NCBI GenBank assembly: GCA_035275285.1
Contig: DATENA010000338.1
Location: forward strand, 5,875-69,874
DNA from: Fibrobacteria bacterium
GTDB lineage: Bacteria; Fibrobacterota; Fibrobacteria; UBA11236
DNA length: 64,000 bases
Direction: 5' to 3'
The notes below the pieces were generated by a model. That model saw only the letters and a program-made list of their open reading frames with translations, searched no databases and was not told the DNA's origin. Both the position numbers and the translations under genes were made by a program. Below are positions 4,636-45,320 of this stretch, piece by piece (within the stretch, counting starts at the first letter, position 1; every line of letters starts with the position of its first letter).

Positions 4636-7539
<2,904 letters not shown>

Positions 7540-7703
7540 CTGTGTGCAAAACCCCTATTGTCCGGTCGGGGATAGGCCCCCGTACGGTTGGGAGCACCGG
7601 GAACAATTTTACTAATTTTCGTGCGATACCTACAGTCATGGGCCCGGCCGGCGCAAGACGACGGTGGCGGTTGCGGGACTTCAATGCGCAAAGGGAATGG
7701 ATT

Positions 7704-8711
7704 ATGGGAATCAAGGTCGCGATAATGGGCGCCACCGGGGCGGTGGGAACGGAACTTTTGGACATCCTCGCCGATCGGAAATTCCCGATTTCCGAGCTGA
7801 GGCTGCTGGCTTCCGCCCGTTCCGCCGGAAAAACCCTGCAATTCCAGGACGAGGATATCAAGGTCCGGGAATTGACCCATGATTCCTTCAAGGGCATCGA
7901 TTTGGTGCTGGCCTCCGCCGGCGGCAAGATCAGCAAGGAATTCGCGCCCTCGGCCGTAAAAGCGGGCGCCGCGGTGGTGGACAACACCTCCCATTTCCGC
8001 ATGACGGAAGGGGTGCCGCTGGTGATCCCGGAGATCAATCCCGAGGACATCTTCAAACACAAGGGCATCATCGCCAATCCCAATTGCTCCACCATCATCA
8101 TGGCCCTGCCCCTGTGGCCGTTGCACAAGCGTTACAAGATCAAGCGCATCGTGGCCGCCACCTACCAGGCCGCCAGCGGCGCCGGCGCCGTGGCCATGGA
8201 CGAACTGGTGAGCGAAACCGCCGCCTACCTCAAGGGGGAGGAGTTCAACCGCACCGTGATCCCCCATCCCTATGCCTTCAATCTCTTCCCCCACAACTCG
8301 CCCATGACCGAGAGCGGGTATTGCGAGGAAGAGATCAAGATGGTCAAGGAAACCCGCAAGATCTTCCACGACGAGGCGATCCGCGTGACCGCGACCTGCG
8401 TGCGCGTGCCCGTGCTGCGCGCCCATTCGGAGGCCCTCAACGTGGAGTTCGAGCAGGAACCGGACCTCGAAGAGGTTTACAAGCTCCTGGCGGCCGCGGA
8501 AGGCGTGGAGGTGATGGAAGACCGCGCCAAGAACCGCTGGCCCATGCCCCTGGACGCCTCCGGCCGTGACCCGGTGCTGGTGGGCCGCGTGCGCAGGGAC
8601 GATACCCAACCCAGGACCCTGGACATCTGGGTGGTGGGGGACCAGATACGGAAGGGGGCGGCGTTGAACGCGGTGCAGATTGCGGAGAAGCTGTTCAAGA
8701 CAGGGAAATAA
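7704..8711 (+). CDS. asd: aspartate-semialdehyde dehydrogenase
   Basis: MGIKVAIMGATGAVG NAD-binding N-terminus, catalytic Cys in NPNCSTI, and Asd dimerisation domain. Start chosen at the internal Met of the 7542 ORF. Confidence 0.9.
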   Translation: MGIKVAIMGATGAVGTELLDILADRKFPISELRLLASARSAGKTLQFQDEDIKVRELTHDSFKGIDLVLASAGGKISKEFAPSAVKAGAAVVDNTSHFRMTEGVPLVIPEINPEDIFKHKGIIANPNCSTIIMALPLWPLHKRYKIKRIVAATYQAASGAGAVAMDELVSETAAYLKGEEFNRTVIPHPYAFNLFPHNSPMTESGYCEEEIKMVKETRKIFHDEAIRVTATCVRVPVLRAHSEALNVEFEQEPDLEEVYKLLAAAEGVEVMEDRAKNRWPMPLDASGRDPVLVGRVRRDDTQPRTLDIWVVGDQIRKGAALNAVQIAEKLFKTGK

Positions 8712-8824
8712 GAAGCGGACGGAGAGACGGCTCCGGAGGCAGACGCCGGAGCACATTTCATGTGCATCCCGTCGGGGGTACAGGCTTATCCCCCGCCGCC
8801 GCGGCTTCGCCCTTCGGAGTCGGG

Positions 8825-8889
8825 GGTCAAGAAAAGAAGAATCCAGCCATTCTTCTTTTCTTAACTCCCGACCCCCGACTCCCTACTCC
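8825..8889. terminator. long imperfect inverted repeat downstream of asd (GAGTCGGGGGTC..AAGAAAAGAAGAAT / ATTCTTCTTTTCTT..GACCCCCGACTC)
   Basis: A 26/33-nt arm pairing with a 6-nt loop, read directly from the sequence. Probable terminator or REP-like hairpin. Confidence 0.4.
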
Positions 8890-8995
8890 CGACGGGACGC
8901 CGCCCCGAGCACCATCACGTCGGATTCCACCCCCCCTTGCCCGATCGCCTCTTAGTCTTATTGCCCCCCGCGTTCCGAAACGCTATACTCCCCCC

Positions 8996-9211
8996 ATGTC
9001 CATCATCCTCGGCCTCTTCATTTTCGTCCTCGGCCTGTATTTCCTGAGCCTGTTCTTCCAGGTGGCCCGGCTGGAAAAGGTCATGTCGGAATCGGTGACT
9101 TTGCTGGAGCGCTACATGATCCTGAAATACTCCCTGGGAGACAAGAAAGCCGCGGCCGAAGACGGGGACGCAATCGCAAATCCGGAACCTCATTCTCCAA
9201 AACCAGGCTGA
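8996..9211 (+). CDS. small hypothetical membrane protein (71 aa)
   Basis: MSIILGLFIFVLGLYFLSLFF.. is a single TM helix. It sits just before the low-GC island and its codon usage is intermediate. Confidence 0.35.
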   Translation: MSIILGLFIFVLGLYFLSLFFQVARLEKVMSESVTLLERYMILKYSLGDKKAAAEDGDAIANPEPHSPKPG

Positions 9212-9289
9212 GCACCGCATCACTGTATTTCCGTGACGGCCATCCGGAAAAGAATCGACCTTTTCTGAACTCCGAAATAACTTATTGTC

Positions 9290-10207
9290 GTGACAAAAAT
9301 TAAGTTTCGAAAACGCTTCATAAGATTAGCGCGATCACCTCTCACTTATGTGGAATGGCTTGGTTCCACAATTGCGACGGCTCTCGGAACTGTTTCGGCA
9401 ATATACGGTCTCCTTCCAGCCGAACGGGACAAGGTTATTTTATGGCTAGTCGGTGCGCTTGTCTTTTTTGCGCTCATCAACCTAGCCCTCATCACTCTTT
9501 TTAATGCTTACAAGGTGAGATATCGTCGGGGTCAGCGAACTTATGAAGCAATTCATCGTATTGTAGAGGAAGCGCGAAATTGCCGTAACACCCTGACATC
9601 TGAGAACTGTAACCGAGCCATTCGCGAGATATGTTTCAATCATATCGCCAAGGTGCTCGGTGATTTTTTTGGTCCCACGCCAAAAATCACATTAAAATAT
9701 GTTCAAAACGATCTGCTTCAATCAATGAGGTCAGGGGACCAATTCGGACGGCTTACCACACCAGAAAAGGTGAAGGAAAACGAAGTCTTTGAAAAATTGG
9801 TCAAGCATCCCGATAAATTCGGCGCTCTTTACATAAAGGATATCCGAGATAAACAGGAAGTTTCGCAAATATTCGGAGTCGAGGGCGAGCGCCTCGGACA
9901 ACGTGCCGAAGGCAAATATCGTACATTTATGGCCATTCCCCTTCGTTCCTCAAGATATCAGGATGGACCATTGCCGGTTAAGAACACAATTGGTATGTTA
10001 GGCTTCGATTCTATGAAGCCTGGGTCCTTTGAGGATCTTGAAGAAGAAGATTATCAGGCGCTTTATGCCATCGTAGACATTCTCTCGGAATGCGTTATAT
10101 ACTGGCAGCACAACTCTGGAGCGAATAATGGAGAGTCCCAAAGCGGCGGCAACGGTCAGCTACAACCTGACTCTGCCCGAGAGCAAAGTCCTTCTGGCGT
10201 TCTTTGA
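9290..10207 (+). CDS. N-terminal 2-TM membrane anchor with about 230-aa cytoplasmic GAF-like domain; encoded in an AT-rich island
   Basis: Two hydrophobic helices (residues ~22-45 and ~50-72), then a domain ending ...TFMAIPL..GPLPVKNTIGMLGFDS...YQALYAIVDILSECVIYW, reminiscent of a GAF fold. Local GC is far below the flanks. Confidence 0.6.
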   Translation: MTKIKFRKRFIRLARSPLTYVEWLGSTIATALGTVSAIYGLLPAERDKVILWLVGALVFFALINLALITLFNAYKVRYRRGQRTYEAIHRIVEEARNCRNTLTSENCNRAIREICFNHIAKVLGDFFGPTPKITLKYVQNDLLQSMRSGDQFGRLTTPEKVKENEVFEKLVKHPDKFGALYIKDIRDKQEVSQIFGVEGERLGQRAEGKYRTFMAIPLRSSRYQDGPLPVKNTIGMLGFDSMKPGSFEDLEEEDYQALYAIVDILSECVIYWQHNSGANNGESQSGGNGQLQPDSAREQSPSGVL

Positions 10208-10358
10208 GGAAAAGGCCGATGAGTTCAGGAAAATGATGGCTCATGGTCCCATCTCGATTGAAATGCAATCTGGAAAGATCATTTCCATTTTCACCTATAG
10301 TGATTTTCTGGATTGCTTGGTTCAATTGCGCTCTGGCGCCACTTCTATAAAGCTGTAA
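10128..10358 (+). CDS. small protein, possible YezD/DUF2292-like (start 10128 or 10233)
   Basis: ...HGPISIEMQSGKIISIFTYSDF.. resembles the G.I.I..Q.GK.V.IE pattern of YezD-like small proteins. If the start is 10128 it overlaps the upstream gene by 80 nt in another frame. Same AT-rich island. Confidence 0.4.
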   Translation: MESPKAAATVSYNLTLPESKVLLAFFEEKADEFRKMMAHGPISIEMQSGKIISIFTYSDFLDCLVQLRSGATSIKL

Positions 10359-10488
10359 CTCTTCGAGATCTGCTCAGGGAACCGGCCTGAAGCGCCCCGT
10401 CGGCGGGCCTCGGCCGATGAGGCGCCGGGACGCGAAACGCCGTGTTCCCATTGTTTGTTAACTTTCCTCTCCGGAGGAGTCCCCGCTC

Positions 10489-11760
10489 ATGAAGAATCTG
10501 GTTTCCCATATCGGCCCGCTGCCGGTTGAACAATTGGCCAAGGATTTCGGCACGCCCGCCTTCATCTACGAAAAGGCCGTGATCGAGGCGCGCATCGCCG
10601 AACTGAAAGCGTTCGAGGTGATCCGTTTCGCCCAGAAGGCCTGTTCCAACCTGGCCATCCTCGCCTTGATGCGCAAGAACGGGGTGGTGGTGGACGCGGT
10701 TTCGGCCGGGGAAATCCACCGGGCCCTGAAAGCGGGCTACAAGGGGCATTCCGCCGAAGGCGGATCGGTTCCCGGGATCGTCTTCACCGCCGATCTGTTC
10801 GACGAGGACGCGGCCAAGATGATCAAAGAGCACCGCATTCCCGTGAACGTGGGATCGCCGGACATGATCGCCCAGCTCGGCAAGTTCCATCCGGGCGCGG
10901 AAGTGACCTTGCGCATCAACCCCGGCTTCGGCCACGGGCATTCCCGCAAGGTGAACACGGGCGGCAGCTATTCCAAGCACGGGATCTGGCATGCGGACCT
11001 GGAAGAGTGCCTGCGCTTGGGCGCGGAGGCGGGCGTGCACATCCAAGGCCTGCACATGCATATCGGCTCCGGAAGCGATTACCACCATCTGTCCACCGTG
11101 TGCGACGCGATGGTGAAGGCGGCCAAGCGCATGGGGCCCCAACTCAAGGTGATCAGCGCCGGCGGCGGCCTGCCCATTCCTTATCGCAAGGAGCAGGCGC
11201 GCATCGACATCGCCGCCTATCATGGGCTGTGGGACAAGGCCCGCAAGGCCATCGAAAAGGAGGTGGGCCATCCCGTGGCGCTGGAAGTGGAGCCGGGGCG
11301 CTACCTGGTCGCCGAATCCTGCTCCTTGCTGACCCAGATCCGGTCGGTGAAGAATTCCGGCGGCAACCGCTTCTACCTGGTGGACGCGGGCTTCGACACC
11401 CTGGTCCGGCCCGCCATGTACGGCGCGTACCACGAGATTTCCATCTGCCCGGCGGACGGCCGCACGGTGGACAATGCGCTCGACACCATCGTGGCCGGCC
11501 CCCTGTGCGAATCCGGGGACGTGTTCACCCAGGAAGAAGGCGGAGTGGTCACCACCCGCAAACTGCCCGAGGCGGTGGTGGGGGATTACCTGATCCTCCA
11601 CGATGCGGGCGCGTACGGCGCGGCCATGTCCTCGAACTACAATACCCGCAAACTGGCGGCGGAAGTCCTGATCCAAGAGCACGGGACGGACGTGATCCGG
11701 GAACGCCAGACATTCGACGCCATCCTGCAATTCGAGCGGGTGCCGGCGAACCTGTCCTGA
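10489..11760 (+). CDS. lysA: diaminopimelate decarboxylase
   Basis: The 423-aa translation has fold-III PLP decarboxylase motifs (..FAQKAC.N..., GGGLPIPY, ...CESGD...). It is syntenic with asd. Confidence 0.9.
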   Translation: MKNLVSHIGPLPVEQLAKDFGTPAFIYEKAVIEARIAELKAFEVIRFAQKACSNLAILALMRKNGVVVDAVSAGEIHRALKAGYKGHSAEGGSVPGIVFTADLFDEDAAKMIKEHRIPVNVGSPDMIAQLGKFHPGAEVTLRINPGFGHGHSRKVNTGGSYSKHGIWHADLEECLRLGAEAGVHIQGLHMHIGSGSDYHHLSTVCDAMVKAAKRMGPQLKVISAGGGLPIPYRKEQARIDIAAYHGLWDKARKAIEKEVGHPVALEVEPGRYLVAESCSLLTQIRSVKNSGGNRFYLVDAGFDTLVRPAMYGAYHEISICPADGRTVDNALDTIVAGPLCESGDVFTQEEGGVVTTRKLPEAVVGDYLILHDAGAYGAAMSSNYNTRKLAAEVLIQEHGTDVIRERQTFDAILQFERVPANLS

Positions 11761-12121
11761 CCCGCTTTCCCCGCCCGGTCCGGGAGGGGTCCAGTAACGG
11801 GTACGTTACCTGCAAGGCGGTTTTCCGGGGAAACGGCTTCCCGGCGCGCCGGAGGCCCCTTCGCATCCCCTGGCCGCTTCCCGTAACGCGCGGAGGACCG
11901 AGGCGCAAGCGGTTTCGTTTTTATTTGCACCCTCGCGTTTCTTGGGAGCCGGGGCCGGGGATTCCTCCGGCTCCCCCGGCAATTCTCCGGATTCCCGCAA
12001 CGGGAATCCGGGCGGTGGATCCATGCGCGGATCGGTGCGCATCCCCGGGCCGCTTCCGAAGGACCAAAGAGGGAGGAAAGTTCCCGTTGAGTTTTGCCCG
12101 CGGTTCCCTATTATAAGGTCC

Positions 12122-12514
12122 ATGCTCACCTTGACCATCACCTTCGCCGCCTTCTGCCTGATCCTGGGGCTCAGCTTCTACCGGAAATACGAGGCGCGCC
12201 TGCGCTCGGAAGCCCAGAACACCTTGCGCTACAGCCGCATCGCGGACTATTTCGGCCGCCCGATCCTGCTGACCTTCGAATACCGGCTGTATGAGAACCA
12301 GGCTCCCTCCCTGATGGAGGCCGACGTGGACGAAATCTACCATTACGGCCGCGATTATTTCCTCAAGGGCTATTCGCCCGACGGGAAGCGTTGCCGGATC
12401 TACAAGTGGAGCCGCATTTCCAATCCGCGGATCCGCTACGATGGACGATACCTGGATTCCCTGGAAGCCTTGTTCCTGGCGGCCGAGAATGGCGGTCCCC
12501 GGGCCGCGGCTTGA
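12122..12514 (+). CDS. hypothetical membrane-anchored protein (130 aa)
   Basis: Start at MLTLTITFAAFCLILGLSFY (TM helix). The rest of the 11942 ORF upstream is low-complexity. Confidence 0.4.
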   Translation: MLTLTITFAAFCLILGLSFYRKYEARLRSEAQNTLRYSRIADYFGRPILLTFEYRLYENQAPSLMEADVDEIYHYGRDYFLKGYSPDGKRCRIYKWSRISNPRIRYDGRYLDSLEALFLAAENGGPRAAA

Positions 12515-12691
12515 GCGGATTTTGGCAATGCCAAATCCAACCAAGTCGGGATAATAGTTGACAATCCCTTGACGCCGGCGCGGATTGGCGCCGAATCGAG
12601 GCGCTTGGTTTTGGGATCGTAAATTGCTTGTATCTCCCGTTACGGTACCGGGTAAAGGTACCCGGACCGGCGTCCCGGTCGAGGAGGGTCC

Positions 12692-12892
12692 ATGGAAAAC
12701 GAAGATCAGGAGTTCTGGAAAGCCCTGCTGATGAACCGGAACCTGCGTTCCAGGTTCATCCGGGACCTGGAGATCCAGTCCATCGTGAGCCGGTCGGCCG
12801 AGGATCTGGCCATCCGGTATCATGAAGAGGAAATGCTGCCCCGCAAGGCCGCCATGACCGCTCAAAGGGCCGCTACCAGCCGCAGCTGGTAA
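12692..12892 (+). CDS. small hypothetical protein (66 aa)
   Basis: GAGGAGG Shine-Dalgarno 5 nt upstream of the ATG. Its 3' end converges on and overlaps the 12862..14658 minus-strand gene by about 30 nt. Confidence 0.35.
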   Translation: MENEDQEFWKALLMNRNLRSRFIRDLEIQSIVSRSAEDLAIRYHEEEMLPRKAAMTAQRAATSRSW

Positions 12893-14658
12893 CCCATATC
12901 GCTTGCCGCCCCCTCCCGGGTCCAAGGCAAGCGCAGGGTCTGCTCCACCTTGACCCCCTTTTCCGCCCACCATCCGTGCCTTACGTCCAGCCTTAGGTAA
13001 CGCCCGGGTTTCCGCACGTCCCCGGCCAGGATTTCCGCCGCCCAGGCCGCCGTCCCCTTGCGTTCGCAGGTCAGGCTCAGAGGCGCGGGCCGGGATCCGG
13101 AATAGCCCCCGCCCTTCCAGGTGAACGCCGCCTTGGCAAGCCAGGGCCCCGACCGCCGGGTCAGGCTCTGGCCCCAGCCGCCCCATCCCCCGTCTTCGCC
13201 GTCATGCGGCAATCCCATGCTTCCGGGCGGTCCGGGCCGGCGGAAGGCCACCGTGCTCCCGGCCTCGTGGGTCCATTCTTCCAGGGTCTGGATCCACGCC
13301 AGTCCCCCCTCCCCGGCCAGCAATCCCCGGTTCAGGGACCATCCGGCCGCGCCGCTTCCCTGTACGTCCGCGCGAAAACCGGCCAGGGAAACCACGGGCA
13401 GGCGGGAGCGGACCGAAAGGCCGCCTTCCCCGCGGCCAGGCAGGATCCAGCGGCCCTCCAGGGTATCGCGCAGGTAACCCCTGGGGGATTGCAGGGGGTT
13501 GGCCCAGGCCGCGCTGGCCTGCCGGGCCTGCAGCCGCCACCCGCCGGAATCGGGATCCCGGGCGGATAGGAAGGCGTCCAGGTAGGCCCCTACCGCGGCA
13601 TTGCGGGAGGGGGAATGGGTCCAGGATCCGGCCGCGCCCAGCTTCCAGAGGATCCCGTCCTCCCCCCGGCCCTGCAGGCCCGCTCCCGCCACCTTCACTT
13701 CCATAGGGGCGCCGGAGGCGGGCTCGAAGCGCTGGAAGGCCGTCTGCAGGCGGAAATCGGAGCGGCTTCCGCGCCTGGCCAGGCCGGCGGTAAAGAGCGA
13801 GGCATCCCGTCTTTCCCCGGCCGCGGAGCCGCCGCGTTGCAAGCGGTTCCAGGTCCCCGCCGCCTCCAGGGTCCAAGCGCCCGCCCGGCCGCGCAGTCCC
13901 AGGCCGTCCAGGGCGGCTTGCGGGGAAAAGAACGCCCCGTCCGCTCCGGAGGTTCCCGACCACCCGGCGTAGAAACGGTTGCCGGCCACGAAAGCCAGGC
14001 GCGTATCCGTAAGGGAGGCATGGAGGTGCCCCGCATGGACGGAAAACCTGCCGTTGCCCAGGCTCGCATAGCGCAAGTAGGGACGATAGTCCCGCAGGGA
14101 AAGGCGCGCGGCCGCGCCCGGCAGCGAGCCTTCGCCTTGGAACAGGGGCGCCGGCGCGCCGGCGCCGGGATCCTGCCTGGGCCGCACGGATTGGGCGGCC
14201 AGCAAACGGGCCCGGGGAGCCCCCCGGCCCTTTCCGGCGCCGGGTCCGGGCGGCGGAAGGGCGTCAAGAGTATCCTGCAGGTTACCTTGGCTCCCTTCCC
14301 CTCCCCGCCTCCCGCCTCCCTCCGCCCCGGGCGGTTCCGGGCAGGCCTCCGCCAGGGCTTCCCGCACGTCCCGCCAGCGCGGCTCGGCGTCCGGAAAGCC
14401 TGCTTCCCGGAGTTCCGGCAGCTCCCGCCAAGCCTCGCACCCCCCGTCGCCCCCCTCCGCGAGCAGGTCCAGCAAGGCGTCGTAGGCTTCCTGCCCCGCC
14501 AATCCGGAGGATATCCGGTCCCGGAGGATTTCCAGGGCCGCTTCCGCTTCCGGCGAATAGGCCCGCGCGGCCGGGGACAGGAACAGAATCCCCAGGCCCG
14601 AAAGACGGAGAATCAGGCGCAAAACCGGGAGTATTTGAGGTTTGTGGGAATTATTCAA
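12862..14658 (-). CDS. secreted beta-rich protein, probable outer-membrane beta-barrel (about 598 aa)
   Basis: TTG start giving (M)NNSHKPQILPVLRLILRLSGLGILFLSPAARA-YS, a signal peptide with an AxA cleavage site. This is followed by alternating-hydrophobic, Gly/Ala/Ser/Trp-rich strands typical of outer-membrane proteins. The upstream 2 kb of the 12862..16695 track ORF is antisense to the kinase-like gene and was rejected. Confidence 0.5.
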   Translation of the reverse strand: MNNSHKPQILPVLRLILRLSGLGILFLSPAARAYSPEAEAALEILRDRISSGLAGQEAYDALLDLLAEGGDGGCEAWRELPELREAGFPDAEPRWRDVREALAEACPEPPGAEGGGRRGGEGSQGNLQDTLDALPPPGPGAGKGRGAPRARLLAAQSVRPRQDPGAGAPAPLFQGEGSLPGAAARLSLRDYRPYLRYASLGNGRFSVHAGHLHASLTDTRLAFVAGNRFYAGWSGTSGADGAFFSPQAALDGLGLRGRAGAWTLEAAGTWNRLQRGGSAAGERRDASLFTAGLARRGSRSDFRLQTAFQRFEPASGAPMEVKVAGAGLQGRGEDGILWKLGAAGSWTHSPSRNAAVGAYLDAFLSARDPDSGGWRLQARQASAAWANPLQSPRGYLRDTLEGRWILPGRGEGGLSVRSRLPVVSLAGFRADVQGSGAAGWSLNRGLLAGEGGLAWIQTLEEWTHEAGSTVAFRRPGPPGSMGLPHDGEDGGWGGWGQSLTRRSGPWLAKAAFTWKGGGYSGSRPAPLSLTCERKGTAAWAAEILAGDVRKPGRYLRLDVRHGWWAEKGVKVEQTLRLPWTREGAASDMGYQLRLVAAL

Positions 14659-37309: not shown

Positions 37310-38917
37310 TCAGTGTTCCTGAAGCGGGAAGAGAAAGGGGATGGTGATGAACCTGGGGCGGGAATCCGGGAAGGCGCGCAATCGCCAGTCCAGCACCCTG
37401 CGCAACAATTCCTGGTCGAACGCGTCCACGCCCGTGCTGCTGCTGACGATGGACCCTTCCAGGACGCGGCCGCCCGGATCCACGGTCAAGCCGATCAGCA
37501 CCTCGCCCGACAGGCCGGGAAAGCCGAGGGCGTAACGGTTGTACAGCTCCTGGAGATTGTCCGCGTCGATATTGGCGGCGGCCTGGACCGAGGCGCGCAG
37601 GATGATTTCCGCCAGGTTGGAGGCCTTGGGCGGCGCCTTGGCGGCCGCGGGCGCGGCGGCTTGCGCGGGAGGAGCGGCCTTCTTGGCGCGGGCCGGGGCA
37701 TCCGGGTTTTGCGCGGCCTTCACGGCCTTCGCGGCGGTCACCGCCGTGGCCGCTTGCGCGGAGGGAACGGGATGGGCGACCGGGACGACCGCGGGCTGGG
37801 TAACCGTAACGTTACTGGCCGGGCGCGCCGGCGCGGCGGAAGCCGCCGGTTTCGCGGACGGCCGGGCAAGCTGTTGCGGGGACATTTTGGGCCGCAGGAA
37901 GGGGACCCGGTTCTCCAAGCCGTCGAACAGGCCGGCCTGGGTGGCGGCGAACAGGCCCAGGCCCAGCACGCCGATGGCGACGATCACCACCGCCGCGATG
38001 GCGAAGTGGAGGGCGGAGCGTTCCGGAAGGCCGCCCCGCAACGCGACGGGGGCGGCTTCCCCGGAGGCTTCCGCGACCTTGCGCAACTGGGCCACCTTGC
38101 GCGTGAGCGCCTGTTCGCGCGTCATGGGCGCGGGGATCCGGTCCAGCCGGATTTCCCCGGAAGGATAGGGCTGCGCGGTCTGCCCGCGCGCGGTGGGCTG
38201 GGCCGGCGCGTCCAAGGTCAGGAATTGGTCCGCCGGCACCGAGAGGGTGGCCATGGGATCCGGGGGCGGCTCGGCGGCTTTGCGCGGCGCCTCGGAGAAA
38301 ACGGTCCCGTTCGGCGATTGCGCCAGGGTGTCCTCCCCCTGCGCGATGAGGGTCTTCTGCATTTCCGCCAACCGGTACAGGCTGGGAGAATGCTCCTTGC
38401 GGATGCGCGCGGAGGGGCCGGTCAGATCCGCGTCGGCCTTGAGCAGGCGGGCGCGGGCATTGGCCATCCATTGCTCCAGGCGTTCGCGCTGGGCGGCCTC
38501 CTCCTTCTCCGCTTCCTGCTTGGCCCGCCGTTCGGCTTCGGCTTCCGCCTCCATCTTGGAGCGGAGGCGGGAGAACTCGTCTTCCGGATTGCCGGTGCGG
38601 TCCGGTTCCCGCCATGCCGATCCGAAAGCGCCTTCCCCGCCGGAGACGGGACCGCGCGCGGCCATTTCCAGGGTGGGCGCGTTGAGGGTTTCCACCGGCG
38701 CGGAAGGGTTGGCCCGCTGGGGCATTTCCAGGGTCGCGTCATGGGCTTGCGCCAGGGCTTCGGACTCTTCGCGGGCGAGGATCTCCGAGCGCGCGCCGGG
38801 CAGGGACGTTGCGGCAGGGTCGGCCTGGGCGGGAAACTCCGGATCGATCAGGTCGAGAGGAACGGGATTGGAAAGGTTGTCCCAGTCCAGATCGTCTTGA
38901 TGGGATTTATCGATCAT
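37310..38917 (-). CDS. TonB-family protein with long N-terminal cytoplasmic region
   Basis: Single TM (..AIAAVVIVAIGVLGLGLFAA..), Pro/Ala/Lys-rich periplasmic linker, and C-terminal TonB_C-like ..LSGEVLIGLTVDPGGRV. Confidence 0.65.
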   Translation of the reverse strand: MIDKSHQDDLDWDNLSNPVPLDLIDPEFPAQADPAATSLPGARSEILAREESEALAQAHDATLEMPQRANPSAPVETLNAPTLEMAARGPVSGGEGAFGSAWREPDRTGNPEDEFSRLRSKMEAEAEAERRAKQEAEKEEAAQRERLEQWMANARARLLKADADLTGPSARIRKEHSPSLYRLAEMQKTLIAQGEDTLAQSPNGTVFSEAPRKAAEPPPDPMATLSVPADQFLTLDAPAQPTARGQTAQPYPSGEIRLDRIPAPMTREQALTRKVAQLRKVAEASGEAAPVALRGGLPERSALHFAIAAVVIVAIGVLGLGLFAATQAGLFDGLENRVPFLRPKMSPQQLARPSAKPAASAAPARPASNVTVTQPAVVPVAHPVPSAQAATAVTAAKAVKAAQNPDAPARAKKAAPPAQAAAPAAAKAPPKASNLAEIILRASVQAAANIDADNLQELYNRYALGFPGLSGEVLIGLTVDPGGRVLEGSIVSSSTGVDAFDQELLRRVLDWRLRAFPDSRPRFITIPFLFPLQEH

Positions 38918-39709
38918 AGAGAACCCGCTTTACCGACTTATCCGGGCAAAATAGGCAGCAATCCAGAAGGTATTAATCCGGAAAGGGGGCCGCAACATGA
39001 CCCCAATGAATTTAAATTTCCGAACCTCAAAACCCCGCAAAAATCACCAAAAAACCGTGTGAAATGACCAGGAATCCGCATGGATGGATTTTGCCATTGT
39101 CTACATGCGATTGGACGTGCGGGAGCCCGCGCGCGTAATCACCGGTAGGCGGGGTTCCCAGTTTGGTTACGCGTTGGGGGGGCGGGGCCGGAGTCATAAC
39201 CGGGCCGGCCGCTTCAGGAGGCGGGACTCCCGGGCTTGCCCGGCGGGAGCCGCATGAGGGCCCGATGGGAGGGGTAACCCGCATGTTAAACCATCCGGAG
39301 GCGACCGCGCTCCATCGACATTGAACCGAATTCCGCGATTTCTTCCAAATCAAAAGCGACGGCACGCGCGCCGCAGGGACCGCGCCCTCGGGGGCGGCCC
39401 GCATTCCTCCGGGTTGGGCCTTGATCGTTACGGAGGTCGACTGGCAATACGTCCATCCCGATGGCGGCGCTTTTTCCCCGGCCAGCGCATGACCTTGCGG
39501 TTGCTGTCGGACAACCTCTCGGACGAACCCTCGCGGCCTGGAGAGCGCGTTTTCGAATCGACCAGTTTCTCGTTTTCCTATCGCCTAAACCGCGCACTTC
39601 CAAGAGCAGGCCAGATCCGCTTGAGGAGTAAGGTTAGTTGAAGAGATAGTAGGTAAAAATGGCTAAAATCAATTAAAAAGACCATTTGCTATTCGGTTTT
39701 TTTTATGTA

Positions 39710-39727
39710 TACTCATACGTATGAGTA
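39710..39727. promoter_or_regulatory. 18-bp perfect palindrome TACTCATACGTATGAGTA overlapping the vapB start codon
   Basis: Self-complementary sequence read directly from the window in an AT-rich promoter region. Likely a VapB/VapBC autoregulatory operator. Confidence 0.5.
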
Positions 39728-39978
39728 AGTCAAAGCGAGCCCAAATTCCAATGCAGCCGGAAGAATATGCACAGCTTCAACGGTTGGCCGAACGCGAAGG
39801 GAAATCCGTGGCCGAATTGGTCCGCATCGCCGTGGCGGACCGGTATTTTATCCAGCCTGGAAAAGACCGTAAGCAAAAAGCATTGGCGAACCTGTTTTCC
39901 TTACAGCCAATCCCGGTCGAAGATTGGAGCATTATGAAAAAGGAATTGTCAGATCGTTATGGCGCCGCTCTTCCTTGA
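39721..39978 (+). CDS. vapB: VapB-type antitoxin (ribbon-helix-helix / CopG-like)
   Basis: 85 aa, ..PEEYAQLQRLAEREGKSVAELVRIAV.. RHH signature. It overlaps the downstream PIN gene by 20 nt. Confidence 0.7.
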   Translation: MSKSKRAQIPMQPEEYAQLQRLAEREGKSVAELVRIAVADRYFIQPGKDRKQKALANLFSLQPIPVEDWSIMKKELSDRYGAALP

Positions 39979-40378
39979 CGCGAACATCTTCTTATATGCA
40001 ATGGGGATCGAGCATCCGGAGAAGGCTCCCTGTCGGAAAGTGCTCGACATGGTGGCGCAAGGCCGCATTGAAGCGGTCACAAGCTCGGAAGTGATGCAAG
40101 AAGTGCTTTACGTTAGGCTTCGAAGAGGGACTCGGAGCGAGGCGTTATCGGCGGTCCGCAACCTCCAGGAAATGGTCGATGCGATACTTCCCGTAACGGG
40201 AGAAAACGTACTGGACGCGTGTGAGCTGCTTTCCCGGTATCCTTCACTGGATGCCCGAGATGCCGTGCATGCCGCTGTGGCCAAAGGGCACGGGATTTCC
40301 AGCATCGTTACGGTCGACAGGGATTTTGAAAGTATCAAGGGACTGCGCCGGCTTTCTCCGACTCAAGCCACTTCTTGA
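39959..40378 (+). CDS. vapC: VapC-type PIN-domain ribonuclease toxin
   Basis: LFLDANIFLY (first Asp), ..SSEVMQE.., ..LDARDAVHAA.., ..VTVDRDF.. are the PIN acidic residues. Confidence 0.8.
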   Translation: MAPLFLDANIFLYAMGIEHPEKAPCRKVLDMVAQGRIEAVTSSEVMQEVLYVRLRRGTRSEALSAVRNLQEMVDAILPVTGENVLDACELLSRYPSLDARDAVHAAVAKGHGISSIVTVDRDFESIKGLRRLSPTQATS

Positions 40379-40418
40379 GGATATCCGGAGCCGATGCCGG
40401 CTATCGAGCTGCGGTTCC

Positions 40419-42593
40419 CTACAGCTCCGTCGTCGCCGCCAACACCTGCTCGATGGTCGTCTCCCCCCGCAGCACCAGCTCGATGCCCGCCTGCCGCAAG
40501 GTCTTCATCCCTTCCTGCTCCGCGCAGGCCTGGATCTCCATGGTGGAGGCGTTCTTGAGGATGAGCTTCTTGACCTCGCGGGAACAGTTCAGCATCTCGA
40601 AAATGCCGATGCGGCCCTGGTAGCCCACGCCGTTGCAGGTCACGCAGCCTTCGCCCATGTGGAACTTCACCGCGGCCGCGTCCTCGACGCGCAGGTGGAG
40701 CTGTTCGATCATCTCCCGCGGCGGGGAATAGGGCACCTTGCAGCGCGCGCAGATCTTGCGGACCAGGCGCTGGGCCACCACCAGGTTCAGGGACGAGGCC
40801 AGCAACAGGGGCGGGATGCCGATGTCGACGAAGCGCGCGATGGCGCTGGAAGCGTCGTTGGTGTGCAGGGACGAGAACACCATGTGGCCGGTGAGGGCCA
40901 TCTTGACCGCGATGTCCGCGGTTTCGTTGTCGCGGATTTCCCCGATGAGGATGGTGTCCGGGTCCTGGCGCAGGATGGAGCGCAGGGCGTTGGCGAAGGA
41001 CATGCCGATGGCGGCGTTGACGTGCACCTGGGTCACGCCTTCCATGTGGTATTCCACCGGGTCTTCCACGGTGATGATGTTGGACGTGACGTCCTTGATC
41101 TGCTGGAGGGCGGAATAGAGCGTGGTGGACTTGCCGGAACCCGTGGGGCCAGTCACCACGATCATGCCGTGGGGCTTTCCGATGTTCTCGCGGAAGATCT
41201 TGAGCTCGTGGTCCGTGAAGCCCAGGTTGTACATGCTCTTTTCGTAGGCTTCCTTGTCCAGGATGCGCAGCACGCATTTCTCGCCGAAGATGGTGGGCAG
41301 GATGGAGACCCGCACGTCCACTTCCTTGAGGCCTATCTTGACCACCATGCGCCCGTCCTGGGGCAGGCGGCGCTCGGCGATGTTGAGGTCCGAAAGGATC
41401 TTGATGCGGGTGACGATGGCCTGGTGGGAGTGGCGCGGCGGGGACATGACCCGGCGCAGCTCGCCGTCGATGCGGTAGCGCACCGACAGCTCCTTCTCCA
41501 TCGGCTCGATGTGGATGTCGCTGGCGCGGTCGCGCACGGCGTTGGCGATGAGCATGTTCACCAGCTTGATGATGCCCAGCTCGGCGCCTGCGCTGGCGGC
41601 CTCCTCGACGCCCATCTCCTCTTCGACCTTCTTGATGTACTGCACCTCGGTCGCGAGGTCGGCCATCAGGTCGGAGGCGCTCCGGTGGGAGGCGATGTCC
41701 CGGTAATAGCGGTCGATGGAGACGGTGATGTCTTCCAGCGTGCCCAGGATGGGCGTGATGCGCAGATCGGTCTGATCGCGCAGGTTGTCCAAAAGGCGCA
41801 GGTTGGACGTGTCCAGCATGGCCACGATGAGTTCGTCTTCTATCTTCTCCAGGCCGATGCAATGGTATTCCCGGGCCACGCGCTCGGGGATCAGGGCCAC
41901 CACGTTCAGGTCCGCGGAGGCGAATTGCTTGGGGGTGGCCACGGGCACGCCCAACTGGCTGGCCAGGAAATGCGTCTTCTGGAATTCGTCGATGAAGCCG
42001 AGGGAGACCAGGGCATCTCCCAGCCGGAGGTTGGTGGTCTCCTTCTGGAAGTCCAGGGCCTTCTTCAATTGCACGGAGGTGATGATGCCGTTCTCGACCA
42101 GGATGGCGCCCAGGGCCTGGGCTTTCCTGGTGAAGTCCATGCGCTGGGACTTCTTCTTGTGCTCGATGCGCAGGGACGCGACGTAGGTCTTCAGGATCTT
42201 GCCCAGCTCCTGGGGAGGCAGGGGCAGGTAGAGGATGTCGTCCGCGGCGAGTTCGGTCCTGGCTTCGGACACCTGGGCCATGCCGCCTTCGTTGACCACG
42301 GCCAGCAGGCAGGGGACCTTGGCGATGAGCTTGAGGGTGGCCACGTCATGGACGAAGGTTTCCAGGGAGTCCCCGGGGCTGAAAATGGCCAGGGCCATTT
42401 CGCATTGGAGCTTGTCCGAATGCCCGAAGTTGCCCGCGAACAGTTGCAGGAACTGTCCTACTTCCGCCGCTTTCAGGAGCTGCGCGAATTGCTGCAAGGA
42501 CTCTTTGCGGTACGCCAGCAGGGTGGTCTTCAGAGGCGCAAGGTTTTCCACGGCGGGTCCTGATTCGGATGCGGTTCTGGCCAAAGTCGTCAT
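40419..42593 (-). CDS. type IV pilus / T2SS assembly ATPase of the MshE/GspE type with N-terminal c-di-GMP-binding MshEN-like domain
   Basis: Walker A VTGPTGSGKSTTLY, Asp/His boxes, and tetracysteine CARC...CVTCNG. The N-terminal region has RLGDALVSLGFIDEFQKTHFLASQLGV, matching the MshEN RLGxx(L)(V/I)xxG(I/F)xxxxLxxxLxxQ c-di-GMP motif. An extra roughly 130-aa N-terminal segment has unknown function. Confidence 0.85.
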   Translation of the reverse strand: MTTLARTASESGPAVENLAPLKTTLLAYRKESLQQFAQLLKAAEVGQFLQLFAGNFGHSDKLQCEMALAIFSPGDSLETFVHDVATLKLIAKVPCLLAVVNEGGMAQVSEARTELAADDILYLPLPPQELGKILKTYVASLRIEHKKKSQRMDFTRKAQALGAILVENGIITSVQLKKALDFQKETTNLRLGDALVSLGFIDEFQKTHFLASQLGVPVATPKQFASADLNVVALIPERVAREYHCIGLEKIEDELIVAMLDTSNLRLLDNLRDQTDLRITPILGTLEDITVSIDRYYRDIASHRSASDLMADLATEVQYIKKVEEEMGVEEAASAGAELGIIKLVNMLIANAVRDRASDIHIEPMEKELSVRYRIDGELRRVMSPPRHSHQAIVTRIKILSDLNIAERRLPQDGRMVVKIGLKEVDVRVSILPTIFGEKCVLRILDKEAYEKSMYNLGFTDHELKIFRENIGKPHGMIVVTGPTGSGKSTTLYSALQQIKDVTSNIITVEDPVEYHMEGVTQVHVNAAIGMSFANALRSILRQDPDTILIGEIRDNETADIAVKMALTGHMVFSSLHTNDASSAIARFVDIGIPPLLLASSLNLVVAQRLVRKICARCKVPYSPPREMIEQLHLRVEDAAAVKFHMGEGCVTCNGVGYQGRIGIFEMLNCSREVKKLILKNASTMEIQACAEQEGMKTLRQAGIELVLRGETTIEQVLAATTEL

Positions 42594-42793
42594 ATTATCG
42601 TGCCTGATGGTTGTAAAAGCCCGGAAAAGGCGCGCCCGGAGGGATGCCTAAACATAGAATGATTCCCGTTTTGGGCTCAACGGCAAATTCCTCAATTCCC
42701 GTGTCCATAAAGAAGCAAATTTCCACGAAGCAAAAATAAACTGGAAATCTCCTGCGGTGGGCCTGATAATCCCTATATTTACGGCAAATCGCC

Positions 42794-43633
42794 ATGGTCG
42801 ACCTGTATCAATATACCGATTACCGAAAGTATCTTCGGGATTATTACGAAGCAAAAAGAGCCTCCCAAAAGGAGTTCACCCACCGGTATATCGCCCAGGC
42901 CATCGGGTTCAAATCCACGGGCACCTTCGCCCAGATCCTGCAGGGCAAAACCAACATCTCTCCGCAGACCATCCTGCATTTCGTGCGCTTTCTGGCCCTG
43001 AAAAAGGACGAAGCGGATTATTTCGAATTGCTGGTGCTCTTCAACCAGGGCAAAAGCCATGCGGAAAAGAAGCGCTATTTCGAGAGGATCATTTCCTTTC
43101 CCAAATCGAACCTCAAGCAGGTGGACTCCACCCAGTACGCCTTCTATGAGAAATGGTATTACAGCGTCATCCGCGAAACCCTGGCGTTCCATCCCTTCGT
43201 GGACGATTTCCGGGAGCTGGCGCGCCTGCTCATGCCCCCCATCGCCACCTCCGAAGCCCAGAAGGCCATAAGGCTCCTGGAAGAGCTGGGGCTGATCCGC
43301 AAGAACGAAGGCGGCGTCTACGAAAAATCCGATCCGGTGATCACCTCGGGATACGACACCCGCTCCCTGGCGGTCAACCAATTCATCATCGAGACCCTGG
43401 ACCTGGCCAAGGTGGCCCTGGACGAGCTGCCGCGGGACGAGCGCAGCCTGTCGGCCCTGACCCTGAGCCTGCCCGAGGACGGCTATGCCATGATCGAGGA
43501 AAAAGTCAAAAACTTCCGCCGCGAGCTGTTGGAGCTGGCGCGCAACTGCGCGGAACCCAAGCGGGTCATCCAAGTCAATTTCCAGATCTTCCCGGTGACG
43601 CGGAAGCCCGACGAGGGGAAACATGAAGCCTAA
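42794..43633 (+). CDS. DUF4423/TIGR02147-like putative regulator with N-terminal HTH
   Basis: ..FTHRYIAQAIGFKSTGTFAQILQGKTNIS.. is HTH-like. The family assignment is from memory and tentative. Confidence 0.45.
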   Translation: MVDLYQYTDYRKYLRDYYEAKRASQKEFTHRYIAQAIGFKSTGTFAQILQGKTNISPQTILHFVRFLALKKDEADYFELLVLFNQGKSHAEKKRYFERIISFPKSNLKQVDSTQYAFYEKWYYSVIRETLAFHPFVDDFRELARLLMPPIATSEAQKAIRLLEELGLIRKNEGGVYEKSDPVITSGYDTRSLAVNQFIIETLDLAKVALDELPRDERSLSALTLSLPEDGYAMIEEKVKNFRRELLELARNCAEPKRVIQVNFQIFPVTRKPDEGKHEA

Positions 43634-45320
43634 ACCGATCTCCGCCCGCCTCGCCCGAGCCCTGCTCGGAAGCCTGGCGATCCTGGCCGGGACCCATTGC
43701 ACGGAAAGCCCCACGGAAGCGCTCCAAGGCGGCGGCGGGTCGGAAGCCGTGGCCCTGGTCGGATCCTTCGAGTACCCCGATCACAAGCCCGCCATGCAGG
43801 CCAGCGTGCGCCTGCGCCCCCGGCTGTTCCTGTCCGACACCGCCGCGGGAGCCGCCCCGGCCGCCGGTTCCGGGACCGTGCTGGACGCCGTGACCGATTC
43901 CCAAGGCGCCTTCCGCATGGATTCGGTGAAGCGCGGCGATTATTTCCTGGAGATCCGCGACAGCGCCTCGCACGGGCTGCTCATCCCCTGTACCCTGACG
44001 GGGGATTCCACCGTGGTCAGGCTGGAGGCGGCCGCCCTGCGGCCCACGGGAGCGGTGACCGGATCCATCGTGGCGCCGGAAGGCTTCGCGGGCCGCACCT
44101 ATGTCCAGGTGTACGGCCTGGATCGCCAGGTCAAGACCGATTCCGCCACGGGCCGGTTCCGCATGGACGGGCTGCCCCAGGGGACCTACACCCTCCGGGC
44201 CGTGTACAGCGCTCCGGCGGTGGACCCGCGCGAGATAGACAGCGTGGCGGCCTACGCCGCCGACACCACCGACATCGGGGCCGTGCGCCTGGCCTCCTTC
44301 GAGAACGAGAACTACGCGGCCTGGCCCCGATCCCGGCGCCTCTACGTGAACACCACCGCCTCCGGCGCCAACGTGGCCGGCAACGTGGACGACTTCCCCC
44401 TGCTGGTCCGCCTCACCAAGGACAATTTCGACTTCTCCGCCGGCCGGGGCGGCCGCGACGTCCGCTTCGCGGACGCCAAGGGGAAACGTCTGCGTTACGA
44501 GGTGGAACGCTGGGACTCGGCCGCCGCGGTCGCGGAGCTGTGGGTGCGCCTGGACCGCGTGAACGGGAACTCCAACTCCCAGTTCATCACCATGCATTGG
44601 GGCCTGCCCGGCGCGGAGGACATCGCCGATTCCCGCATGGTGTTCGGCGCGGACGCGGGTTTCGCGGGCGTCTGGCACCTGGGCGAAAGCGAACCGGACA
44701 CCGTCTCGGCGGATCTCTACCGGGATGCCGTGGGATACGATCCGGCGGCCGACCGGGTGGCCTCCTCCGGCCGGGACGGCGTGGTGGGCTACGGCGCGGC
44801 CTTCGAAGGCGACGACTACATCGCCGTGCCCGTGGCCAATCCGCTCTTGCAGCCCAACGCCATGGTCTCCGTGTCCGCCTGGATGAAGGCCTCGCGCACC
44901 TCCGTCCTGGGCGGGAACATCCTGTCCATGGGCGACAGCTATACCCTGCGCGTCAATCCGAACGGCACCGGCCGCTTCTCCTTTTTCAACGGGGAAATGA
45001 TCGGGGTGGAAACCCCCAAGACCGTCAACCTGCTCGACTCGGCCTGGCATCACCTGGCGGCCACGTACGATGGATCCGCCCTGTCCCTCTACGTGGACGG
45101 AAAGCTCTCGGCCAGGGCCGCGGCCAAAGGATCCCTCGACTACCGCTTCTGGCCCGCCTTCGTCATGGGCCGGCACGGCAACCGCAAGCCGGGATACGAT
45201 TTCCACGGCAGCCTGGACCAGGTGGAGGTTTCCGGCGAAACGGCCCGGTCGGCGGATTGGATCAAGCTGGCGTACGAGAACCAGCGGACCGGCTCCAAGC
45301 TGGTGGAGTTCCGGCCTTAG
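43623..45320 (+). CDS. lipoprotein with carboxypeptidase-regulatory-like, DUF2341 and LamG (concanavalin-like) domains
   Basis: Lipobox LAGTHC. Tandem beta-sandwich-like repeats (..GDYFLEI.., ..GTYTLRAV..). DUF2341-like ..DFPLLVRLTKDNFDFS..RFAD..G..L.YEVERWD... C-terminal LamG-like ..ALSLYVDGKL... Confidence 0.55.
   Translation: MKPKPISARLARALLGSLAILAGTHCTESPTEALQGGGGSEAVALVGSFEYPDHKPAMQASVRLRPRLFLSDTAAGAAPAAGSGTVLDAVTDSQGAFRMDSVKRGDYFLEIRDSASHGLLIPCTLTGDSTVVRLEAAALRPTGAVTGSIVAPEGFAGRTYVQVYGLDRQVKTDSATGRFRMDGLPQGTYTLRAVYSAPAVDPREIDSVAAYAADTTDIGAVRLASFENENYAAWPRSRRLYVNTTASGANVAGNVDDFPLLVRLTKDNFDFSAGRGGRDVRFADAKGKRLRYEVERWDSAAAVAELWVRLDRVNGNSNSQFITMHWGLPGAEDIADSRMVFGADAGFAGVWHLGESEPDTVSADLYRDAVGYDPAADRVASSGRDGVVGYGAAFEGDDYIAVPVANPLLQPNAMVSVSAWMKASRTSVLGGNILSMGDSYTLRVNPNGTGRFSFFNGEMIGVETPKTVNLLDSAWHHLAATYDGSALSLYVDGKLSARAAAKGSLDYRFWPAFVMGRHGNRKPGYDFHGSLDQVEVSGETARSADWIKLAYENQRTGSKLVEFRP

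Follow-up and report, generated by a model that had tools for sequence, protein, structure and literature searches.

What is the AT-rich segment that lies between asd and lysA in this Fibrobacterota genome, and what could the two genes that it carries be doing? We examined the segment within the window (the whole stretch of DNA analysed, 64,000 nt), for which a sequence-only reading had proposed a horizontally acquired island that splits the asd-lysA neighbourhood. The features that define the site are the following.

7638–8711 (start at 7638 or 7700), forward strand: asd, aspartate-semialdehyde dehydrogenase, the left flank (Pfam Semialdhyde_dh/dhC, E 1e-35 to 1e-49)
8996–9211, forward strand: native ORF of 71 aa with a single TM segment, conserved in relatives; left border of the island and not part of it
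9212–10445, no strand: inserted segment, delimited by comparison with the empty site of relatives and by the GC profile
10427–10448, forward strand: hairpin resembling a terminator, with a T-rich run after it, 3' of the small partner gene and 5' of lysA (consensus scan; RNA fold)
10489–11760, forward strand: lysA, diaminopimelate decarboxylase, the right flank (Pfam Orn_Arg_deC_N and Orn_DAP_Arg_deC)

The asd gene call was taken from an identical contig (L005), and more than 100 close homologues of the lysA product carry the name diaminopimelate decarboxylase. Pfam confirmed both genes of the split neighbourhood, with the nuance that the native order is asd, a TM ORF of 69–71 aa and lysA, and that the cassette follows the TM ORF. 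This small ORF was kept between asd and lysA in four relatives (L021, L022, L023 and L024; 69–103 aa as called), its region showed nucleotide homology to relatives across 8984–9147, and its GC and GC3 were 0.546 and 0.72, respectively. We considered it as a member of the cassette and rejected it, as it is native and present in the relatives with an empty site.

The GC content of 9290–10358 was 0.456, compared with 0.654 (5000–8711) and 0.658 (10489–14000) in the flanks: the marked contrast that had been reported by eye was confirmed, while the estimate of about 68% for the flanks was slightly too high. Windowed GC, which the sequence-only reading had suggested computing, placed this segment as the minimum among all 1,069-nt windows of the 64 kb (mean 0.642, sd 0.048, z = -3.9), and GC3 was 0.44 in gene 1 and 0.58 in the small ORF, far under the 0.85–0.90 of asd, lysA and gcvP. 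In two close relatives (L021 and L023, with LysA 91% and 89% identical) we found asd, a 69-aa TM ORF and lysA without the cassette: the stop of the TM ORF was followed by the lysA start within 49–66 nt, and homology to the window was picked up again at about position 10451. Because these relatives hold the same three genes without the cassette, approximately 9212–10445 represents an insertion. Its AT-rich core spans about 9212–10380, while the GC-rich stretch 10381–10445 is of uncertain origin within the inserted segment. The site combines a compositional outlier with presence/absence at a conserved position, as genomic islets do, and about 1.2 kb of AT-rich foreign DNA was acquired horizontally between the native small TM ORF and lysA, as had been proposed.

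The flank repeat search around the cassette yielded no convincing target-site duplication or terminal inverted repeats, the ORF list held no integrase or transposase within 9212–10445, and the flanks on either side, when aligned, showed no conserved non-coding ends between loci. By eye, about 10381–10399 resembles the end of the TM ORF (about 9199–9217) at 15/19 positions; this imperfect similarity was judged not significant. The RNA fold of 10340–10490 was not exceptional (z = -1.8), and the Rfam search of 8000–12500 gave only spurious miRNA-type matches, on a hairpin at 8816–8875.

The inserted segment carries two genes, with the following features.

9290–10207, forward strand: gene 1 as present here, 305 aa with a GTG start, an ORF identical to NCBI VJ385_22515 ("Fibrobacteria bacterium")
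9356–9505, forward strand: N-terminal TM hairpin (TM1 at about residues 23–43, outside loop 44–49, TM2 at about 50–72)
9599–10132, forward strand: cytoplasmic GAF-fold domain, residues 104–281, from the predicted structure
10139–10207, forward strand: read-through tail of 22 aa, QSGGNGQLQPDSAREQSPSGVL, produced by a lineage-specific loss of the stop codon
10128–10358, forward strand: partner gene, 76 aa, soluble, pI 5.7, conserved directly 3' of gene 1

According to the family alignments, the conserved gene 1 protein comprises residues 1–283 only (9290–10138). The low-complexity N/G/S/Q tail that had been described is present in the sequence and is not a feature of the protein family: positions 10139–10141 read CAA here and the equivalent codon is TAA in the closest relative (L010), a change that is synonymous in the frame of the small ORF (CCT to CCC). 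All gene 1 homologues terminate 11–14 nt past the partner ATG and none has the tail, which arose by read-through after loss of the stop codon in this genome alone and is predicted to be disordered (pLDDT of about 50).

Kyte-Doolittle peaks were found at residues 24 and 50 of the gene 1 protein, and 35 out of 36 other family members also showed two hydrophobic peaks (3 N-terminally truncated sequences were left out). Residues 1–22 contain 7 K+R and residues 73–100 contain 8, so that the positive-inside rule points to an N-in/C-in topology. For the fold we used an AF2 model built from 39 sequences (pLDDT 88.2, pTM 0.81), which replaced an earlier, weak one from 5 sequences (pLDDT 60.6); in this model, helices span residues 17–44 and 48–100. 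The C-terminal domain is predicted to have the arrangement of GAF domains (an antiparallel beta-sheet with the N- and C-terminal helices against one face and a helical/loop lid over the other) and significant structural similarity to solved ones. Four of its residues are invariant (K136, Y210, G235 and D240), and H89, R96, R147, E159, R205, A215, P217 and D263 are near-invariant in the family. By sequence, gene 1 had no match to Pfam GAF (PF01590) at E<=1, only 2 out of the 39 family members reached E 0.038, under the threshold, and a PDB sequence search with the family profile gave no match. The paired TM helices and GAF-like cytoplasmic domain that had been read from the sequence were borne out, by the conserved hydrophobic segments and by the predicted structure, respectively. 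Gene 1 is predicted to encode an inner-membrane protein in which an N-in 2TM hairpin leads through a helical stalk to a cytoplasmic GAF fold, and the architecture includes no enzymatic output domain. Canonical GAF domains (PF01590; PDB 3k2n, PDE2A/5A, CyaB2, NifA, phytochromes) share only 7–17% sequence identity with it and sit in multidomain enzymes and regulators, unlike the GAF fold of gene 1, which stands behind a 2TM anchor without an output domain.

An N-terminal TM hairpin joined to a cytoplasmic ligand-binding domain is also the architecture of Pycsar PycTM, CBASS 2TM-SAVED/Cap14 and the TM-Macro ThsA of type II Thoeris. Gene 1 could accordingly be an orphan membrane effector of this kind, activated by a second messenger, whose GAF domain binds the cyclic nucleotide product of a cyclase with its gene at another site. 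The likeness extends to the lack of an enzymatic domain and to mobile AT-biased islands; the ligand domains differ (cNMP-binding, SAVED or Macro versus GAF). To our knowledge, those effectors are always encoded beside the cyclase or TIR protein that produces their signal, whereas we found no signal-enzyme gene in the loci with flanks: none of the 13 loci described below has a cyclase, CD-NTase or TIR gene beside the pair, and the sole conserved neighbour is the partner of 70–78 aa. Among the family members there was no Pfam match to SLATT or cNMP-binding domains, and a PADLOC effector matched 1 out of 39 members, over the TM segment only (E 0.0065). We consider this explanation improbable.

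The small ORF had been read as 41–76 aa, possibly overlapping gene 1 out of frame. The 76-aa form is conserved (70–78 aa across the family) and the 41-aa reading was not supported; the overlap is real, 80 nt here and only 11–14 nt in close homologues. In close relatives the partner ATG lies within the 3' end of gene 1, an arrangement that implies coupled translation of the two. A likeness to YezD/DUF2292 had also been put forward. The partner is similar in size, and close partners show a helix followed by a beta-hairpin-like pattern, G-x-[IV]-x-I...G-K-[IV]-[IV]; in the distant partners of L012 and L013, however, the G..I.I..Q.GK motif is lost. None of 10 partners had any Pfam match at E<=10, and we rejected membership of the YezD/DUF2292 family (PF10055). 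The PDB profile search with the partner profile gave nothing relevant, and no DNA-binding motif was found in the partner (no Pfam match; pI 5.7).

Both genes are under purifying selection: pN was well below pS in gene 1, and the pN/pS values of the partner ORF were 0.07/0.78 against L010 and 0.17/0.93 against L001, while the other two frames showed the reverse. That the two are over-called or decaying foreign ORFs is therefore largely refuted and, in our view, highly improbable: the gene 1 stop codon was lost here and the gene callers on the identical ENA and Logan contigs omitted gene 1, but neither ORF is disrupted, both are conserved with a pN much lower than the pS, the stop loss adds nothing more than a disordered tail and is silent in the partner frame, and the deep alignment gives a confident fold.

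We then asked how the pair is distributed, since its co-occurrence across unrelated genomes had been suggested as a check. The partner ORF lies directly downstream of gene 1 in 13 out of 13 distinct loci (Fibrobacterota and one Bacteroidota), with an overlap of 1–14 nt or a spacing within 60 nt (distant relatives are 1–60 nt apart). The family is rare, sparse and patchy (47 clusters in 1.84 billion representatives), and a metagenome scan added one more locus only. Cassette GC was under flank GC in every locus with flanks: 0.456 vs 0.65 in the window, 0.487 vs 0.69 in L002, 0.459 vs 0.55 in L011, 0.345 vs 0.40 in L012, and 0.285 vs 0.33 in L013. The flanking genes differ from locus to locus (asd/lysA; aryl-polyene-like KS and DUF3175; BrxC-like thioredoxin; T2SS ATPase; glycosyltransferase), and no third gene is conserved besides the pair among the 13 loci. 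The pair forms an operon of two genes that is self-contained and is transferred from genome to genome as one unit, so the expectation that it travels across unrelated contexts held. A coupled bicistronic operon with constant co-occurrence and a patchy, mobile distribution is also what characterises type II toxin-antitoxin (TA) modules.

Three of the loci have a conflict-type context, which is suggestive and anecdotal. In L011 the pair is found between Mu-like terminase/portal/F/G genes and the Mu c/ner/A/B left end, in L013 it adjoins a HepT-like HEPN protein, a DUF5131 protein and a type I HsdM, and in L015 it adjoins an HNH_2 protein, between core genes. Approximately half of the about 8 informative contexts are ordinary metabolic neighbourhoods. 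The L011 position, directly behind the Mu-like head genes F and G and adjoining the c/ner/A/B module, would fit a prophage-derived moron for superinfection exclusion or lysis control, with the membrane protein and its regulator as remains of a degraded prophage, and BFVD contains phage proteins of similar size annotated as GAF-domain (weak Foldseek match, E 1.2e-4). However, no phage genes lie near the pair in the window, L002, L015 or L019, no relative was found in 2.9 million IMG/VR contigs (searched with two different profiles) or, by tblastn with two family members, in the 50,697 INPHARED phage genomes, and PHROGs gave no match for the family; a moron origin thus seems improbable too. The tblastn search of PLSDB plasmids with the same two members also gave no match.

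No match in Pfam or NCBIfam named the pair as a known system. In PADLOC-DB v2, the window proteins had 0 matches at E<=1, and the 39 family members had four single-member matches (E 0.0016–0.0065), all of the TM-segment type and none credible. The view that the pair is not a described system agrees with these searches of Pfam, PADLOC, PHROGs and NCBIfam.

We propose, tentatively and with a probability of roughly 0.45, that the pair is a candidate conflict module of the toxin-antitoxin or abortive-infection type. This proposal draws on the empty sites, the low GC at each locus with flanks, the change of flanking genes from locus to locus, the 13/13 pairing, the purifying selection, the 2TM and GAF architecture with no further domain, the conflict-type contexts, the rarity of the family and an experimental precedent (toxFtsL_D9, below); against it stand the lack of a convincing PADLOC or PHROG match and of any match in IMG/VR, INPHARED and PLSDB, and the share of ordinary metabolic neighbourhoods among the contexts. 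The toxin-first order and the small acidic partner would fit a TA module and do not prove it. The membrane-anchored GAF protein would act as the effector at the cytoplasmic membrane, and its target may be the divisome, as for the TM and GAF toxin toxFtsL_D9, or membrane integrity. The role of cognate neutraliser or regulator would fall to the small co-translated protein, and the GAF domain could serve as a regulatory surface for binding of the partner, of a small molecule or of a cue derived from a phage. Once the partner is lost or titrated away, or a ligand is bound, the effector would be freed and the cell arrested or killed, by which the cassette would be stabilised and/or phage infection aborted.

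GAF domains are typical of sensors, and for this reason the anatomy of the pair would suit signalling without toxicity equally well. The GAF domain may sense a cytoplasmic metabolite, with the small protein, retained at the membrane or set free from it, as a signalling output or chaperone, the whole being a horizontally acquired regulatory module. Such a sensor-adaptor is possible, though we lean against it: the pair lacks an output domain, the partner shows no DNA-binding motif, no third gene is conserved with the two, a regulator without a fixed target is hard to square with unrelated insertion loci and a sparse, patchy distribution, and the strong AT bias, together with the neighbouring prophage and defence genes, speaks for a conflict element.

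The closest precedent for a conflict module is toxFtsL_D9:PanA of Gelidibacter mesophilus, a TA pair of the NetFlax node D9 (WP_027127282.1/WP_027127283.1; Ernits et al. 2023, PMC10440598). Its toxin, a Bacteroidota protein of 281 aa described as "GAF; FtsL; transmembrane", was experimentally validated and is neutralised by the neighbouring antitoxin; it causes filamentation, FtsZ delocalisation and delayed lysis, and its action is on cell division and not through depolarisation (PMC10440598). The two modules are alike by description: a membrane helix with a GAF domain, 281 aa there and a 283-aa core here, in a two-gene module of the FCB group. They differ in that the antitoxin there is a Panacea-domain protein (PanA), whereas the partner here has 70–78 aa and no Pfam match, and in that toxFtsL_D9 is described in the paper with an FtsL-like helix, whereas the gene 1 family has a clear 2TM hairpin. 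No Panacea gene was called adjoining the pair in any locus, and no Gelidibacter protein was present among the 20 family clusters looked up.

A more specific version, which we regard as unlikely, is that the pair is a new immunity or addiction system of Fibrobacterota and Bacteroidota, in which the membrane GAF protein would directly sense a nucleotide or a ligand derived from a phage, or else that its partner has been lost, and then act at the membrane or divisome to kill or arrest the cell. Such a system would bring a new toxin family, a new antitoxin family and a mode of sensing absent from the catalogued defence systems. As a TA or defence module in general, the pair would represent a new family of 2TM-GAF toxins or effectors and a new family of small neutralisers, outside Pfam, PADLOC and PHROGs, from a phylum in which mobile and defence genes have been little studied. 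It would then stand beside toxFtsL_D9, the only membrane GAF toxin with experimental support, and would suggest that GAF domains have been taken up repeatedly to regulate toxins that act at the membrane. At only about 1.1 kb and self-contained, the cassette is easily synthesised and tested, and the presence/absence polymorphism between asd and lysA provides a natural isogenic comparison.

The sliding GC profile of the window drops to 0.43–0.50 between ~9100 and 10400, against 0.60–0.70 in the flanks. The two coding regions of the cassette, gene 1 and its small partner (9290-10358), have a GC of 0.456, compared to 0.654 and 0.658 in the 3.5 kb on each side, and no 1,069-nt window anywhere in the 64 kb goes lower (mean 0.642, sd 0.048, z = -3.9). 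GC3 was 0.44 in gene 1 and 0.58 in the small ORF, relative to 0.85–0.90 in asd, lysA and gcvP; the AT-rich segment and its coordinates, as proposed in the sequence-only reading, were thus borne out. Pfam identified the flanking genes as aspartate-semialdehyde dehydrogenase (asd) and diaminopimelate decarboxylase (lysA).

Genes in the asd-lysA interval
8996-9211, + strand, single-TM ORF of 71 aa (MSIILGLFIFVLGLYFLSLFF...), kept between asd and lysA in the lineage, without family assignment
9290-10207, + strand, gene 1, 305 aa
10128-10358, + strand, small partner, 76 aa

Three further assemblies of the same genome were 100% identical to the window, the identity covering 7401-12600. We compared the site with two cassette-free relatives, L021 (GCA_039926685.1, LysA 91% identical) and L023 (GCA_025360005.1, LysA 89%). 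In both, the gene order was gcvP(-), asd, a one-TM-helix ORF (69 aa in L021 and 103 aa in L023, as called) and lysA, with just 49–66 nt between the one-TM ORF and lysA. Nucleotide homology with the window covers asd and the small TM ORF (8984-9147) and resumes at ~10451, which places the insert at ~9212-10445. The foreign composition and horizontal acquisition suggested earlier are therefore supported by both the GC outlier and the empty sites. The claim that the insert splits asd and lysA also stands, with the nuance that the 71-aa TM ORF, which is native and lies outside the insert, forms part of that interval; it has the same orientation as the lysine-pathway genes. We saw no integrase or transposase at the insert, and neither a tRNA, a target-site duplication nor terminal inverted repeats. 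Flank alignments across loci showed that between-locus homology ends at the CDS borders.

An ORF of 70–78 aa lies directly 3' of gene 1 in every readable locus (L001-L004, L008/9, L010, L011, L012, L013, L015/16, L017/18 and L019/20; L011 and L012 are Fibrobacterota MAGs and L013 is a Prolixibacteraceae contig, Bacteroidota). The small ORF had been given as 41–76 aa, and it is the whole 76-aa reading that can be aligned across partners. Between the window and L010, the closest relative, this frame shows pN 0.07 and pS 0.78, while the two alternative frames have an inverted pattern and contain stops, so that the small ORF is a real coding gene. Its product is soluble, with a mildly acidic pI of 5.7, and its sequence pattern suggests a helix, beta-hairpin, helix arrangement. 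The likeness to YezD was not upheld: none of 10 partners matched Pfam, including DUF2292/YezD, at E<=10, the G..I.I..Q.GK pattern fades in distant partners, and we do not regard the partner as a YezD member.

All homologues of gene 1 stop 11–14 nt past the partner ATG, and in close relatives the small ORF appears to be translationally coupled to gene 1. At window 10139-10141 the codon is CAA, whereas L010 (81% nucleotide identity) keeps TAA; this stop loss is a single T-to-C change, synonymous in the partner frame, that adds 22 residues (QSGGNGQ...), predicted to be disordered. The low-complexity N/G/S/Q tail previously read as a feature of gene 1 is thus a stop-loss extension absent from homologues and not a family feature. 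The out-of-frame overlap of the two ORFs does exist here (80 nt), though it comes from the same stop loss, and both tail and overlap arose recently and by accident in this lineage. The gene calls were discordant: ENA and Logan (L005, L006 and L007) kept the 76-aa partner and omitted gene 1, and NCBI included the 305-aa gene 1 without the partner. The 80-nt same-strand overlap is the likely cause. For this genome, the pairing would thus escape searches of gene catalogues.

We found no match for the 305-aa gene 1 in Pfam, NCBIfam or PADLOC. A word-indexed search of 5.8 billion proteins recovered only four relatives (54–75% identity), and a HMMER profile built from them identified 47 family clusters among 1.84 billion cluster representatives, 37 of them at E<=1e-10; nearly all were 280–320 aa with end-to-end matches. 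The family is real but rare. In a 39-sequence alignment, K136, Y210, G235 and D240 were invariant and H89, R96, R147, E159, R205, A215, P217 and D263 near-invariant, with the motifs TLKY, Y(R/K)TFIALPIR and LG(x)LGFD. The AlphaFold2 model from this alignment (pLDDT 88.2, pTM 0.81) has an N-terminal hairpin of two long helices, the second running on as a stalk to residue 100, followed by an alpha/beta domain (residues 104-281); a lower-confidence earlier model gave the same ranking. Two hydrophobic peaks were present in the window protein and in 35 of 36 other members (3 N-terminally truncated sequences excluded). Since the N-terminus and the segment after TM2 are basic, both termini would be cytoplasmic. 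The description of gene 1 as a 2TM, GAF-like protein therefore holds for the predicted fold, while the sequences do not match the Pfam GAF model above threshold, which leaves gene 1 a GAF protein by structure outside the Pfam family. Weak matches to 8xMP (PF24838, octameric membrane protein family; E 8e-4) occurred in 2 of the 39 members, presumably at the TM hairpin, and may hint at an oligomeric ring assembly or reflect mere similarity of TM composition. Given the selection on both genes and the fold of gene 1, it is very improbable that the segment is non-functional DNA.

In all loci the GC of the cassette lies below that of its flanks, and the flanks of different loci are mutually unrelated.

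Neighbours of the pair in different loci
Window: asd and lysA
L002: aryl-polyene-type ApeP/KR/KS genes and DUF3175
P0002 contig: BrxC-like thioredoxin
L011: immediately before the pair, Mu-like terminase, portal, F and G; after it, Mu-type repressor/ner/MuA/MuB block
L012: T2SS ATPase
L013 (7116-12463, 3' of the pair): HepT-like HEPN, GMT-wHTH, DUF5131, type I HsdM
L015: HNH_2 protein, between core genes
L019: glycosyltransferase and panB

With the partner 3' of gene 1 in all readable loci, the suggestion that the two genes travel together is confirmed, and what they form is a two-gene operon that is self-contained and moves horizontally. Where hosts are named, they belong to Fibrobacterota (Fibrobacter sp., Chitinispirillaceae, 'Fibrobacteres/Fibrobacteria bacterium'), with one Bacteroidota in addition. 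In L011 (1-12822; JAYUVP010000077), the Mu-like genes end abruptly at the cassette, and three minus-strand genes (one DUF4468) separate it from the Mu-type left end; this layout would fit two Mu-like elements in tandem or a single truncated one. A role as a prophage moron, in exclusion or lysis control, seems improbable to us, and no relatives were found in IMG/VR, INPHARED phages, PLSDB plasmids or PHROGs. The L013 run (OY782875) resembles a defence island, with a HEPN protein of 328 aa and HsdM as a type I R-M methylase. In L015, three ORFs of 240, 297 (with an HNH_2 endonuclease domain) and 52 aa sit 5' of the pair (5972-7787), amid macB-like, gyrA and clpB, and perhaps form a further small module for accessory functions or defence.

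The analysis shows the first product to be a membrane-anchored cytoplasmic GAF-fold protein without an output domain, and the second to be a small soluble protein whose production is firmly coupled to it. An orphan second-messenger effector has little likelihood, as a cyclase was never adjacent in the loci; no signal generator accompanies the pair, which therefore does not count as a CBASS, Pycsar or Thoeris effector. The closest precedent is toxFtsL_D9 of Gelidibacter mesophilus (281 aa, annotated 'GAF; FtsL; transmembrane'), an experimentally validated toxin that its neighbour PanA neutralises; the toxin leads to filamentation, loss of FtsZ localisation and delayed lysis, while the membrane is not depolarised (PMC10440598). 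By its published description it has the same architecture and size as gene 1, but the partners differ. Obligate pairing and minimal size, patchy distribution, AT bias and insertion at arbitrary sites, the three conflict-type neighbourhoods (L011, L013 and L015) and this experimental precedent lead us to propose, with a probability of about 0.45, that the pair is a module of the toxin-antitoxin or abortive-infection type. By analogy with toxFtsL_D9, the membrane or the divisome would be where the 2TM-GAF protein acts, the GAF domain could offer a regulatory surface, and the small partner would keep the protein in check. A non-toxic sensor-adaptor pair is a less likely alternative. As the sequence-only reading had suspected, the pair is not a described system (gene 1 lacks Pfam, NCBIfam and PADLOC matches and the partners Pfam matches), nor is it represented among PADLOC systems, and we rate it as an uncharacterised and unclassified two-gene module of toxin-antitoxin/abortive-infection type with a putative membrane GAF effector. 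It is a clean and cheap candidate for experiment, and would be a conceptual surprise only if the GAF domain directly senses a phage or nucleotide cue.

Several other features were observed in the window. Just 3' of asd, a strong GC-rich inverted repeat (8816-8875; 27-nt arms, 89% complementary, 6-nt loop), enclosed by a second 17-nt inverted pair (8764-8780 / 8884-8900), most likely represents the asd terminator or else a REP-like element; in Rfam it drew only spurious miRNA-type matches. A 130-aa ORF (12122-12514, +) matches the WYL domain below threshold (E 8e-4, 19.8 bits vs a cutoff of 21.8) and is conserved in L021 and L023, hence native and outside the island. Between lysA and this ORF, L021 (7366-9186) and L023 (7441-9255) carry a ~605-aa gene of native GC, with a signal-peptide-like N-terminus and no Pfam match; the window genome lacks it entirely, with no remnant by tblastn (site 11761-12121), a second presence/absence difference adjoining the cassette region. 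Finally, milder GC dips occur at ~38850-40700, 42050-43700 and 47500-48800 (1-kb windows of 0.54–0.56 vs a mean of 0.64), where the ORFs still have high GC3 in one frame.
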